Assembly: GCA_000182565.2 (NCBI GenBank)
Contig: KQ257453.1
Length of the DNA: 64,000 bases
Reading direction: 5' to 3' (one strand)
DNA from: Spizellomyces punctatus DAOM BR117
Taxonomy: Eukaryota
The notes beneath the pieces were generated by a model, which saw nothing but the letters and a program-made list of their open reading frames with translations, did not search any database and was not told the DNA's origin. The position numbers and the translations under genes are program-made. This document shows, one piece after another, positions 23,137 through 30,100 of this stretch (position 1 is its first letter; each line of letters opens with the position of its first letter).

Positions 23137-24687
23137 TACTGAGCTCCTCGATTGGATCGCTACATCTGATTTCATCAAAATGAACATGTCCCCCTCACGG
23201 CATAGCCTTATTACTTGTTTCTAGCATGTACAACCCAGATCGACTTTTTGAATGTGCAAACCATACCAGGAATATTGCAGTGCGTGCGTTAACACTAGTT
23301 GAATGATTGCAACCGCAATACGCCAGTTCAAACCCGCTGCTACGCTTGAAGGGTAAGTCGATACTGAGCTGTATTCTACTGTTTCCGGTCCTTCCCTTTA
23401 ATTTGGAGGGGGCTTTCCTGACCCCGCCGTCTCCTGTTCATGTGGGAGGATACTGACTGTATCTGACCTTTTGATTCTTTCACATGTCACATTGCGCTAG
23501 TGTGATCATTGTGGAGAGCATACAAGACGTCAAAACCACCTGCACCATCAAGCCCTTCATGTTGTATGCTCGGGTACTGCTACTTGATGCGCATTGGCTT
23601 GCCATCGATGCCTACAATAATCACATGGGGCATGTGGCAAACGAAGAGCGACATCGAGAAAAAAAAAGATCAAAAAGCAAATGTCACTTGGTCAACTGTG
23701 CTCGTGAATTTTGATATTCTCCCGTAAATAATTGTCATATTATCGAGCAGTGTTATTCTCTTGCGAGCCTCTGTGATGGAAAAGTCAAACAAACCACAAA
23801 ACCAAAGCTGATTCTTACCATCGTCGTTTGATGCAAAAGTATGGCCTTCCCCCCAGCGAGGGCTTTGAGCAACCACGCGCTTGCATCCCCGATCGGGACC
23901 TTACGAAATCACAAGCCACATCTTACCCAACGCGTCGCTTTTGACAGTTGACACTGGGCGCAAAAAGAAACTTGCGCGGAAAAACAGAAAAAAGGCCACG
24001 GACAATATGACAAAACGAGTATGACAACGGCAACTCAGCGGCTTCAATGAAGAAGATGGAGAGATTGGCAGCAAACAAGGAGTGGAAATCGATTTAGTAG
24101 AACGTCAGATACCGTAGAATCGGAAAGAAGAGAAACCGCGGAAGAAAATAAATTCCCTTGTGGAGGGAGCTCTCGTCTATAAAAAGGGGACCTGGCTCAT
24201 GTAAATCATCAGTAGACTTGGCGGGCTCCCAACATGGAAAATACGATTGGCGCTTTCGACTGACCACTGGGATCACGACAACTTTAAAGACTTGTCTTTA
24301 GCTTCATTCCCTTCACATCTTCACTCTACTCGACAGCGACTTGCCGAGCGACCTGCGACCCTGCGGCTTTGCGATACTTTCGACGTTGGCGTTACGTTGT
24401 TCAAAATTCCAATCAAGCTTGAGCGATACTACTTGAAAATTCAGCGAAACACTTGAACTCTCCGTAGGACTCTGCAAGCATGCCTAAACACCAACCGTAC
24501 GAACCTGGAACGCAAAAACCGGAAACCGCCATCCGTGAAAAGACATGGGAATATGACGCTTGGCGAGTTTTGACAGGCCAATCAAGTTAAAACCAGACGT
24601 CTGCCCTTTGCATGAACGCTTCACCAAACGGCGGCCAAGGGAGAGCTCTCGCATCCTCTCAATTTCTTCTATTCGGACGTTCGGCTA

Positions 24688-25620
24688 TCACTCTTCGTTA
24701 GTTGCCACAAAGTTCTTACCCCGGCTAGCTCCCAACCATTCAACACTCAAAGCCCGCAATTTCCTTCCGCAGCTTGGCCTTCGGGGACCGAGACGCATTG
24801 CGAGACTGAAGTCGAGCCCTGAAAACAAGCTAACCCAGTCAAAGTTGAAGTGACTTATATTGAAGATAGACACCAACGGATAAGCTTCGAAGATGTGGGG
24901 TCTCCGGTCTCGACAGAATCGCATTATGCAAACAGAACGACGCGCCTGTATCTTAGCGCGAAGAATGGTCGATCCTCTTCAAACCCCTTGTCGGAAGAAC
25001 GCAATTTATGGGATTGTCGTAACATGTGGAGAGTGTCTACATTCCCGCCCATACACCTCGGCCCCGGCCCCTTCGTTGCCCTCTTCGTATCCGGTCTCCA
25101 GGAACTTTGTTTGCCAGCGAACGAGGAACATTTGTCAGCGTGATCATGACATTTCCATTGCCCGGTGCTGTTGGGTCGATCCAAAAGAGTCGCACCACTC
25201 CTGTAGTGGCGACCGTAACTTCTTGGCCTTCTAAAGTCGGGTAGTACACTTCACGCTTCCAGATTCCTAACCCTCCAAAGCGGAAGCCAGCGTAGCGCGG
25301 GTAGTGCGCATAATAGACATCCCGTAGATCGTCCATGTACATCATGGACAATTCGTATAGACGTTGTCCAAAGTCTTCGCGGAGCTTGCGGTGATCGCTC
25401 CGCTTCATCTTCCACAAGTTCGCCAACATGTGCAACCTGTCTAGGTTGCCCCCGCGATACCCAACACGTACCCGCCATGTTAATTCTTCACAATCATCGC
25501 CATAGCATTTCTTCATGATCCTCTGCAAATGTTTCAATTTCTTCGGTAGTCATTCCGGCGCTTTCGCCACCCCTCCTCGTATCCTCCCAACGATGCAACC
25601 ATACGGACTTTTTCGACTGC
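24688..25620 (-). pseudogene. Orphan-family ORF with internally repeated module; frameshifted
   Basis: Fragments LGGYEEG/TTEEIE, RGGNLDRLHML, DLRDVYYAHYPRYAG and CMGGNVDTLHML occur in shifting frames. The motifs are shared with 26301-27088. Confidence 0.5.
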
Positions 25621-26300
25621 ACCAGCATAGCACGATCATACGGTCTTCAAGAATTCGAGCCGAAATATTTTTGAACATCAAACCCACCTATGTAGGCTCG
25701 AGCAACCGGACGACGGGAGCTTTCGACCTCAAGCGACTAGCGGAAGACTTATACGAACACTTTGAGGAATGTACCAAATGCGATATTCTACCCAGCTTGG
25801 GGGCGGAGAGGAGGAATCATCATTTTCCCACCATGCTTGCTTCTTCAGAGTATTTTTCTTATCGCTCACGCGTGGACTACGCTGTTAATTGGCAGTTTCC
25901 ACCGCGGACAGCCGGATGCTTTCATGTGCATCACCCGCGAATCGACGCAGCAAAAGTCCATAAACCACAACGCCGCCATCTGGGGTCGCGACGAAAATAT
26001 GGAGTGGATTCTCGTGGCTGCCCACTTCCCCGATGCGCTTGATGACAACCAAATGCTGCAGAACACCCACCAAGACTCCGACAATGAATGAACACGAGGC
26101 GAACGCATAGTCAAGTTTCACGTGACAATCTTGCCATATAACCATTTCTGGATTAATTATGCGATAATCAACTCTGCACGCGAATGTGACAATTACGTTC
26201 ATACTCGATATGCACCTCTCGTGGGGTAATCACCATTTTTCGCTGCAAGCTAAAGGCTCGGTTTCTTAGGAGCTATTTCATAAATGGCGTTCTCTACATT

Positions 26301-27088
26301 TTGCGTATGTTGTTGAAGGAAATCATTAACAGTCGAACCCTTTCAACGTTCGCGGAGCACGCCGTCTGGCAGGACGTGGCCCGGCTGGATAGCCAAAAAG
26401 TCCGGCAGTTGCGCGAAAGAGGGATGCTGGGCCCTCTTATTCTCGCTGCGATACGTGGTCGGCACAAGGGACGTCCGTTTCCTACCGCCAGACGTGGTCA
26501 TCGCTCCTCGTCTCCCCACCAGCCGCGGTCCATGCAAGGACAATCTAACACTCGTCAACTGCCGGCATCTTCCTCGCAGCCACCCTCCGACCTCTCACAT
26601 CTTCCGGACTTCGCCGAAGTAACTCAGCTCAGCGCCGGCCGTCTTCCTCGCAACCAACGGGCTTCACCGAAAGGACCTGGGGTGGCACCAACTGACTCTG
26701 ACCAAGTTGACGCACCTCTATTTATTTGGAGAAGGGATCATAATGCACTGTACCGTGCTTGGGTGGAAGGGTCCCGAATCTTAACTCAGGGGGCAGGAGC
26801 GACTTGGAAACCCTGTATTATGAGCACTACCCCCAATATACTGGTGACATTTACCAGGCCAGAGGGCTCGCCGGGTTAGAAGGATACGAGGAGGGAAGTG
26901 AAGAAGTAGTGACGGCGGAAGAGATTGAGGCATTGGGACCATTGGAAGAAGAAGAGGAAGAGCAGCTTGAGGCGGGACAAGAAGCGGTGGAGCGACAAAT
27001 CATCCCCGGACTTTGCGTATTCTGTGATCTGGCGACAAGTATTTGCAGCGTGATTGCCGATCTGTATGAAGATTTGCTGGAGGAATAA
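26301..27088 (+). pseudogene. Orphan-family ORF (two overlapping frames; frameshift or unrecognised intron near 26750)
   Basis: ORFs 26301-26879 and 26759-27088. CLGGRVPNL, DLETLYYEHYPQYTG, LEGYEEG..VTAEEIE, CVFC; ends EDLLEE*. Confidence 0.55.
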
Positions 27089-28719: not shown

Positions 28720-29206
28720 TATGCCGAGAGCTCATTTGCCATGTGGTGGAAAGAAGCCATGAAGGATCCCTTGCCGCATGCCATACTCTTGGAGCACTTT
28801 ATAAAACTTCCCGATGATAGGCAATTGTTGAACAGTTTCCCAAGAAGATCATGAAGAAACGGAGACATGGTATTTTTAGGATTTCCATCACAATTGAAGG
28901 CAAGAATGCGCTATTGCCACTATGATTACGCAAGACTAGGTCAGCGTGACGATCAAGCCCGCATCGTCTAGGAGTTGAGGGATATGCAGCCCCCCAGAAA
29001 AGCCAAAAAGGTCCGCAATATGATCAAACATGTGTGCAGCGGCAGCTGAGCAGTAGTCACAAAGAGATGGAAGCTATCGGCAGCGGCTTTGGAAGGATGG
29101 TACGCAGCAGACTTGGCTGCCATCAATCAGTGCCATGAAAGGAAGGCTACGACCTCAATGCTGGCGTGAATATCGATATCTTCAAGATCTCCTCATCGAG
29201 GAGTGA
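28720..29206 (+). pseudogene. Degenerate third member of the orphan family
   Basis: Stop-riddled. RYCHYDYARLG..DQARIV/GVEGY and terminal YLQDLLIEE* echo 26759-27088, and it sits in the same position relative to repeat A. Confidence 0.35.
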
Positions 29207-29319
29207 TGTTTACACTTTGTAGTATGTCCCTACCCTGCATTTGTTGGTGTGATTGAGAACTCATTGGGAATGTACATAGTGCATTGGGTACGTGGATCAT
29301 TGAGCAATAAAATGAATGT

Positions 29320-30100
29320 TTGTGCCATAGGCATGTACAACTGCACGCCAAGCAGACTGAGTTATTATCCCTCCCAGCAGCGTTCCTACTGCGACGCCAA
29401 AGGCGCTTAACTGACCACTTGCGCAACTACGGAAAGCACAATCCAGAGGGTGCAAACCGGCCAAGTGACCAGACAAGGAGGGGACCCGAACCACGACTAG
29501 GAGTACTCTCCTACCCCATACGCACTCCTACAACATGAATTCAACACTAGGCAACGCATACAAGCAGATGGTATACGATGGCAGTGAGGGCATCCATGAA
29601 GATTCGATACGCAGGACGGCAAGGCCGCCGCGGTAGTCTGCTTGAGCGCCAGGTTGGCTTTGATCTGAAGAATGAAAGCAATACACAACGAAGCGAGAGA
29701 GCAACATATGCATTGCACCATCCTGAGATGACAGCTCTAGGCCAAAAAGAAGAAGCAAGTTAGTGACCGTCGCTGCGACAAAGGAACCAATGCCACAGAC
29801 CTTGCATTGGTTTACAAAAAGGCATACTTGGTGTTGGGCGGCGAGGAAAGCAGGAGAGAGGAGCGCAAGTTGAAATGGCATTGTTGGGAGGAAACCTGAG
29901 GGGGGGGAATTGGAAGGTCGCCCCCTTTTTATAGACCCAAAATCTCCATAAACCCATTTCAGGACTAATTGAAACGCGTAATTCACCATTTAACCTTTTT
30001 AGGATTGCGGTCACCTGACAAACTCACTATTTAACCTTTTTAGTTCTCATTACAGTCACCTGACAAGTTCACCATTTCACCATTTCGGGATTAATTACGC
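29320..30100 (-). repeat. Repeat A copy 3 (longest copy; three introns; possible 58-aa ORF 29881->29511)
   Basis: TATAAAAA at 29926-29933. Introns 29737-29827 (GTATGC..CTAAC..TAG), 29665-29718 and 29528-29576. Tandem upstream ACCATTT/TTAACC motifs. Confidence 0.88.

Follow-up and report, generated by a model that had tools for sequence, protein, structure and literature searches.

The locus studied here raises the question of whether an orphan protein gene and a small RNA gene that repeatedly face each other tail to tail form a working pair or are neighbours that were copied together. It lies in Spizellomyces punctatus DAOM BR117, in a window of 64 kb (the whole stretch of DNA analysed, belonging to the single contig KQ257453.1, to which all counts refer unless stated otherwise). 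Within the window, a stretch of about 8 kb without any recognisable family is flanked by a Sec61-gamma-like gene and an enoyl-CoA hydratase-family gene. Its two recurring components are repeat A, a sequence led by a TATA box, and a family of open reading frames (ORFs) represented by ORF2, ORF(-) and a degenerate member called here the unit 3 member. The initial annotation of this DNA proposed that the protein gene and the opposed RNA gene are duplicated as one unit, reminiscent of poison/antidote selfish cassettes or of proteins with a dedicated RNA. The reading that we favour, with moderate confidence, is that a convergent gene pair was duplicated, in inverted and tandem fashion, in this lineage specifically, with the RNA gene conserved and the protein gene decaying.

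Copies, promoter module and transcription of repeat A

Repeat A is present as three mutually matching stretches (80.1-80.4% identical over 423-497 nucleotides (nt) by self-blastn). The window contains no other self-match at E<=1e-5, and an nhmmer profile of the three copies recovers just these three full copies there. Copy 1 (22020-22585, plus strand) carries the upstream sequence AAATGGTTAAATGG at 22052-22065, the TATA box TATAAAAG at 22082 and a conserved core at 22100-22545; its promoter diverges from the Sec61-gamma-like gene. Copy 2 (27121-27701, minus strand) has the TATA box CTATAAAAAG at 27634-27625 and its core at 27615-27162. Copy 3 (29260-29990, minus strand) has CTATAAAAAGGGGG at 29934-29921 and its core at 29740-29295. 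Copies 2 and 3 are direct repeats with a spacing of 2131 base pairs (bp) and copy 1 is inverted. The ends of the copies are fuzzy at 80% identity.

The promoter module is common to all copies: the TATA box (TATAAAAG or CTATAAAAAG) is followed by a conserved ..CTTCCAAATCCCCCC stretch and preceded, 25-35 nt upstream, by an element of the AAATGG type with the sense reading (AATTAATCCC)GAAATGGTNAAATGG. In its plus-strand form this element has 4 matches in the window with up to 3 mismatches (0 expected), and 4 of the 10 occurrences of TATAAAA on both strands are of the repeat A promoter type. The upstream element is found twice at 27660-27730 (minus strand; plus-strand reading CCATTTNACCATTTNGGGATTAATT), with the copy 2 TATA box on one side and the beginning of the unit 3 transcript on the other, and for this reason the region is probably a bidirectional promoter. 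The element copies of repeat A copy 3 occupy 29946-30096 (minus strand), between its TATA box and the enoyl-CoA hydratase-family gene; further AAATGG/CCATTT promoter elements are found there in a tandem repeat of 45 nt at 30004-30093 (2 copies, 71% alike). A lone copy of the element is found at 26134-26158 (minus strand), 150 bp before ORF2. The adjoining segment 26093-26015 (minus strand) was considered as a fourth, truncated relic of repeat A, which stays unproven with a marginal Smith-Waterman score (42 against a shuffle maximum of 35) and an nhmmer E of 19.

The RNA evidence comes from one strand-specific RNA sequencing (RNA-seq) run carrying the same species label and possibly derived from another strain; about 6% of it was read, and depth was counted in 434-nt bins. 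The first mate in this library is in the sense orientation. Two genes served for calibration: the one at 20434-21121 has three GT..AG joints, ends in a poly(A) loose end at 21121 and has its first mates on the plus strand, and the Sec61-gamma-like gene has CT..AC joints and its first mates on the minus strand. All three copies of repeat A are transcribed in the direction of their TATA boxes, on the strand that the initial annotation had predicted. The depth is 2.14 sense and 0.12 antisense at copy 1 (bin 22170-22603) and 2.94 and 0.56, respectively, at copy 2 (bin 26944-27377). It is highest at copy 3, with 21 and 0.67 in bin 29114-29547 and 6.75 and 0 in bin 29548-29981. The corresponding values are 8.6 for the enoyl-CoA hydratase-family gene (bin 30850-31283) and 96 for the Sec61-gamma-like gene (bin 21302-21735). 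The sense signal exceeds the antisense one over the three copies and falls outside them, as in a discrete transcript with ends defined to the width of a bin. A separate metatranscriptome run gave one contig with two tiny matches to the window and is uninformative.

The transcribing enzyme is presumably RNA polymerase II. An origin of repeat A from a transfer RNA (tRNA)-derived short interspersed element (SINE) was rejected: ARAGORN finds no tRNA-like gene in the window, and on inspection by eye against the A-box/B-box consensus the B-box-like GGTTCGGGTCC has no A box upstream. A further obstacle is that copy 2 contains TTTT runs, at which polymerase III would stop. Genes of the small nuclear RNA (snRNA) type have a compact promoter composed of a TATA box and a proximal upstream element. 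Repeat A resembles them in having a TATA box, a conserved element that precedes it by 25-35 nt, a short discrete transcript, several paralogous copies and a conserved transcribed body, but it lacks an Rfam match and its length exceeds that of most snRNAs. Inspection by eye revealed neither an Sm site nor conserved C/D or H/ACA boxes in it.

Coding potential and folding of repeat A

No open frame is shared by the three copies of repeat A, and 5 of the 21 gap runs in the core (3 of the 15 distinct positions) are multiples of three. Codon usage was assessed by a log-ratio trained on 8 genes of the window; in a leave-one-out trial the real genes scored 0.088-0.141 bits per codon in frame (8/8). 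In the same test those sense-frame ORFs of repeat A that were scored give from -0.147 to 0.038. Pfam detects nothing in them at E<=1, and a protein search with the ORF of copy 2, covering near lengths, returned no candidates. The invariant runs of the repeat measure 29, 22 and 18 nt, and its best-conserved blocks, including the 29-nt run, are located downstream of the putative stop of copy 3. Repeat A therefore looks non-coding: there is no common frame, the indels are mostly not multiples of three, the codon usage is non-genic and the conservation continues beyond the putative stop. Between the copies (80-83% identity) transitions and transversions number 37:37, 47:39 and 54:33. Repeat-induced point mutation as the cause of this divergence was rejected because transitions are not in excess. 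We infer that the repeat is under purifying selection.

Copy 3 has features that may be read differently. It contains a private insert of 173 nt between the promoter-proximal block and the core, with TCAGG direct repeats at 29899-29895 and 29726-29722; removal of the insert would give back the sequence that the other copies have there, and intron-like signals (GT.., CACTAAC, ..AG) are found inside it. A signal-peptide-like exon 1 at 29881-29828, followed by a predicted intron (GTATGC..CACTAAC..TAG), would lead into a cysteine-rich exon, and the spliced product, which is predicted to start with MPFQLALLSPAFLAAQHQ, has many cysteines. Copy 3 is also the most expressed of the three, and in copy 1 indels of -2 and +2 restore, by reading, the frame around IKAN...PSCVSNL. 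Repeat A could thus encode, or recently have encoded, a small secreted cysteine-rich peptide of the effector type, with copy 3 working and copies 1 and 2 pseudogenes. We regard this as unlikely in view of the broken frames, the non-genic codon scores and the position of the strongest conservation behind the stop. No joint is listed for the predicted intron, and no spliced reads are listed across the insert, at a low depth there of about 7. In fungi, genes of small secreted cysteine-rich effectors form tandemly duplicated clusters. The present locus is similar in being orphan, clustered and locally duplicated and in the hydrophobic start of the cysteine-rich ORF of copy 3. It differs in that the putative coding part is the least conserved one and is broken in frame, the region after the stop is the most conserved one and the codon usage is not that of genes.

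The folding energy of repeat A is below that of shuffled sequences, more strongly on the sense strand (z of -3.05, -2.55 and -3.19 for copies 1, 2 and 3) than on the antisense strand (-2.44, -1.72 and -1.10). Five control stretches of equal length gave -0.47 to +1.63, and a second computation for the sense strand gave -3.75, -2.11 and -3.46. In the closed architecture predicted by RNAalifold, a hairpin stands at the 5' end and several others are enclosed by a long-range helix (CAAGCAGAC with GUCUGCUUUG). In the consensus fold of 131 pairs, 95.6% of the cells are paired as compared with 32-49% in slid controls, the structure being derived from these same sequences. Compensatory changes are seen in 4 of the 131 pairs, a number reached by 4 of 500 shuffles, and come from the three related sequences that define the fold. 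By reading, the 11-nt deletion in copy 3 takes off the tip of one hairpin and leaves a shorter stem; the 6-nt insertion in copy 2 falls within a loop. Taken together, the predictions suggest that repeat A is a structured RNA, of which three paralogues give no proof. Rfam 15 (4227 families) has no match in the window at the gathering score, and at E<=10 over 21900-30200 it gives two hits, neither of them inside the body of repeat A.

The orphan protein family and its surroundings

The ORFs of the locus are connected by two short patterns. One is the motif Y[YF].HY..Y[AT]G, for which a six-frame translation of the window gives three hits (26816 and 27882 on the plus strand, 25315 on the minus strand), each of them in this locus, and 200 shuffles give none; the pattern was chosen after the hits were known. 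The tail pattern [EQD]DLL.?EE* has two six-frame matches only, ...YEDLLEE* and ...LQDLLIEE*, which are the tails EDLLEE* and QDLLIEE* pointed out in the initial annotation. ORF(-) and ORF2 are 33% identical over 61 amino acids (aa; E 5e-4). At the DNA level the regions of ORF2 and of the unit 3 member (ORF3) do not resemble each other significantly (Smith-Waterman score 39; the best of 30 shuffles reached 37). Judged by these alignments and motifs, the family is real but very diverged.

ORF2 (26307-27088, plus strand), with the motif LYYEHYPQYTG at 26816 and the tail EDLLEE*, is a member in two overlapping frames. The description of 26301-27088 as a single ORF had to be abandoned: frame 3 is open at 26307-26879, and it is a different frame (frame 2) that ends at 27088. 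A predicted 47-nt intron at 26750-26796 (GTACCG..CTTAAC..GCAG) would join the two into a protein of 246 aa; otherwise there is a frameshift. Reads over ORF2 are close to zero, so that the predicted intron has no RNA support. The codon score is 0.033 for exon 1, which is not gene-like, and 0.343 for exon 2, which is gene-like but inflated by a run of Glu. As a separate observation, the best codon score over 26307-26749 is that of an antisense frame (0.102 versus 0.033 for the sense frame), and there is no long antisense ORF at this place.

ORF(-) (25037-25516, minus strand; 159 aa) is the sole uninterrupted member, with the motif VYYAHYPRYAG at 25315 and a gene-like codon score of 0.117. In the RNA-seq run the depth over ORF2 and ORF(-) is 0-0.09. 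Degenerate family fragments stand in tandem with ORF(-) on the minus strand at 24990-25629 (a C-terminus-like one at 25629-25503 and an N-terminus-like one at 25049-24990) and have no repeat A partner. The minus-strand member had been described as converging on a further promoter at 24176. The member itself is confirmed by its similarity to ORF2, but the promoter has no repeat A body and almost no reads. The sequence at 24175-24195 (plus strand), GTCTATAAAAAGGGG..GACCT, is of the repeat A promoter type, and the 15-mer GTCTATAAAAAGGGG is found in the window at 24175 (plus strand) and 29936 (minus strand, copy 3) only. Neither Smith-Waterman alignment nor nhmmer finds a repeat A body after the TATA box at 24176, and the read depth is 0 to 0.3. 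Probably, these 15-22 nt are the relic of a repeat A-type promoter.

The unit 3 member is transcribed from the plus strand at 27780-28700 (approximate ends), with an intron at 27825-27879 whose GT..AG joint is present in 5 reads. The depth is 5.1 and 10.7 on the plus strand and about 1 in the bin from 28680. Splicing brings MERNNGREGA in frame with LYFDHYSSYAGAR, after which a stop follows (full reading MERNNGREGALYFDHYSSYAGAR*). Since the spliced frame reaches a stop so soon, this member is a transcribed, spliced pseudogene or a long non-coding RNA. The ORF of 138 aa at 27984-28400 has a codon score of 0.012. The C-terminal relic with QDLLIEE* (29183-29206, plus strand) is positioned downstream of the fall in transcript depth. 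A further relic, a 5' segment that belongs to unit 1, is found at 23069-23137 (minus strand) and matches 27770-27818 of unit 3 in inverted orientation.

No family of Pfam is found in any ORF of the locus, be it at E<=0.01 or at E<=1, and among the domains absent from them in Pfam are RNA-binding, nuclease, membrane-toxin, reverse transcriptase, integrase and transposase domains. A HMMER search of 1.84 billion protein representatives with ORF(-) returned the query itself and two bacterial repeat proteins, which share the short motif PTAPxNGNV and were judged spurious. In a word-indexed protein search covering near lengths only, the N-terminal part of ORF2 had no hits from 192 candidates and the C-terminal part none from 9; the window protein P0001 has no relative in viral contigs. 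Single-sequence AlphaFold2 models show four short helices followed by disorder for exon 1 of ORF2 (predicted local distance difference test score, pLDDT, of 56) and one long C-terminal helix for exon 2 (pLDDT of about 90 over residues 51-95). For ORF(-) the Atlas model has a pLDDT of 0.40, and in the ESM Atlas the best feature score is 0.81, within the noise range, with a template modelling score of at most 0.38. The prediction for the orphan protein is thus disorder over most of its length and a long helix at the C-terminus.

The surroundings of the locus look fungal, with short spliceosomal introns confirmed by reads and with housekeeping genes recognised by Pfam (ELP1, ribosomal protein S4e, the enoyl-CoA hydratase-family gene, an MMM1-domain protein, Nrd1/Seb1 and tubulin chaperone D). 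The enoyl-CoA hydratase-family gene, a Pfam assignment, is located at 30199-31095 (plus strand). The Sec61-gamma-like gene (21302-22000, minus strand, two introns) and the ADF/coactosin-like gene (20434-21121, plus strand, three introns, poly(A) at 21121, depth up to 827) were named by reading their translations, spliced in the former case, and not by a family search. In the Sec61-gamma-like transcript, 15 of 148 minus-strand RNA reads have A>C at 21445, which may be a strain variant, a paralogue or an error. The segment 23257-23358 is covered by about 259 RNA reads with two fixed differences (23266 C>G and 23273 T>C) and loose ends on either side (23262 and 23293). It is also matched by several DNA contigs of two sequencing sets (X1 and X2) with differing flanks, and has the look of a piece of a dispersed repeat, or of an RNA that is highly expressed and has its gene elsewhere.

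Proposed duplication of the pair and its meaning

The distances between the two components agree with the initial annotation: 85 bp separate the ORF stop at 27088 from the 3' end of copy 2, and 114 bp separate the stop at 29206 from copy 3. The idea of a duplication unit made of a protein gene and an opposed RNA gene stands insofar as the two are co-duplicated, with units 2 and 3 in tandem and unit 1 inverted, but some fragments have no RNA partner. Unit 1, in which copy 1 faces the relic at 23137-23069, is an additional unit absent from that annotation. In the reading favoured here, local duplication of a convergent pair would have built up the 8-kb stretch, giving one inverted unit, two tandem ones and some fragments. 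Repeat A would be a small RNA gene of about 430-600 nt with a TATA box and with upstream AAATGG elements that would also serve the divergent neighbour. Its sequence would have been held at about 80% identity while the surroundings diverged beyond recognition at the DNA level. The orphan protein gene would be decaying, with one member intact, one needing an unproven intron, one transcribed pseudogene and several fragments. The tail-to-tail layout would then be inherited through duplication and would not be evidence of joint working.

The same geometry could also mean a functional two-component cassette, in which the orphan protein and the opposed RNA act as toxin and antidote, as a ribonucleoprotein (RNP) or through control by convergent transcripts (antisense or small RNA). 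The recurrence of this geometry in units 2 and 3 at similar distances (85 and 114 bp), with the third unit inverted, speaks for it, as does the gene-like codon usage of ORF(-), and the ORFs could be expressed at stages that were not sampled. Nevertheless, we hold such a cassette to be very unlikely. The RNAs are expressed where there is no intact partner ORF, most clearly in unit 3, where the ORF is dead and the RNA is the most expressed one; RNA expression without an intact, expressed partner argues against an obligate pair in the sampled condition, although vegetative cells would not express a meiotic driver. Some ORF-family fragments lack an RNA partner, and no RNA body follows the TATA relic at 24176. 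There is no RNA-ORF complementarity beyond chance: among 12 RNA-by-messenger RNA comparisons, 11 are at or below the shuffle maximum and one is marginal (26 versus 24). The protein models show disorder and a single helix, and no RNA-binding, nuclease or membrane-toxin domain is present.

The wtf genes of fission yeast and the Spok genes of Podospora are killer meiotic drivers that make poison and antidote from one locus; wtf does so by two protein isoforms and Spok by one large protein, and both systems are protein-only. The present locus is similar to them in being lineage-specific, multi-copy and fast-diverging, with many pseudogene copies between ordinary genes. It is different in that its second part is an RNA, no Pfam family matches any ORF and it is not known to cause drive. 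Membership of the locus ORFs in the wtf or Spok families was rejected, with no Pfam family at either threshold and no credible relative of ORF(-) by HMMER. In bacterial type I toxin-antitoxin systems, a small toxic protein is combined with an antisense RNA antidote that pairs with the toxin mRNA. Here, too, a small RNA gene and a protein gene point at each other tail to tail from different strands, but complementarity does not exceed chance, the annotated ends are 85-114 bp apart and the locus is eukaryotic and has introns. Any real overlap of the 3' ends of the convergent transcripts is beyond the resolution of the 434-nt bins. A literature search, limited to listings, found no description of a comparable locus.

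The ORF and repeat A could also together form a mobile or selfish DNA unit of a type not described before, or an array resembling long terminal repeats (LTRs) with a small internal region, that has multiplied locally and perhaps elsewhere. The units are multi-copy and lineage-specific, contain decaying ORFs and are placed between housekeeping genes, and copies 2 and 3 are direct repeats. Moreover, some reads over copy 3 fit none of the three copies: other letters are found in 4 of 30 reads at 29472, 8 of 27 at 29476 and 4 of 29 at 29488, and they agree with neither copy 1 nor copy 2. Such reads hint at further copies of repeat A elsewhere or at strain differences. This explanation of the locus nonetheless appears improbable to us. 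Pfam reveals no reverse transcriptase, integrase or transposase domain. An LTR retrotransposon or solo LTR was rejected, as the ORFs between the copies or next to them contain no Pfam family and hence no gag/pol domains. At the copy ends neither terminal inverted repeats nor target-site duplications were noticed, in the course of an inspection that was no systematic search. The transcripts end near the end of the repeat and do not enter the "internal" region. The mixture of invariant and variable blocks and the fold signal suggest constraint on an RNA. Finally, no match was found in viral or metagenome collections: DNA pattern scans gave 0 matches for two invariant blocks of repeat A in metagenome contigs and 0 for one block in viral contigs.

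Several observations weigh against a conserved RNA gene accompanied by a decaying protein gene. With ORF(-) intact and gene-like in its codon usage, the protein family cannot be called simply dead. The silent ORFs could be stage-specific, for example meiotic, like those of selfish drivers, and the expression data are those of one partly read and binned run that possibly belongs to another strain. On the RNA side, gene conversion among the copies could mimic purifying selection. The antisense strand of repeat A also folds somewhat better than shuffled sequences, and both the structure and the covariation rest on three RNAs, all of them paralogues in one window, with the covariation counted on the very sequences that define the structure. 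The ORF of copy 3 has a signal-peptide-like start and many cysteines. The deviant reads over copy 3 mean that more copies may exist elsewhere, which would fit a mobile element too.

A bolder interpretation would take repeat A as a new fungal family of structured RNA, regulatory or serving as a catalytic scaffold, equipped with a promoter module of its own and under purifying selection, with the orphan long-helix protein as its dedicated partner. The resulting eukaryotic cassette of protein and RNA, possibly selfish, would spread by local duplication and act at a life stage that was not sampled. We consider this combination quite improbable, and as a candidate selfish or RNP cassette the locus is currently unsupported. 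The duplication of a convergent pair with unequal fates of its members has a meaning of its own: the locus would be a case of an RNA gene outliving the protein neighbour with which it was co-duplicated. If repeat A is a conserved structured RNA, it would represent a family of fungal RNAs not described so far, with a promoter module by which it can be recognised. This module would then be a handle for finding more such genes, which ordinary annotation misses, and it is mainly as a starting point for searches across the genome and in other species that the locus is of value.

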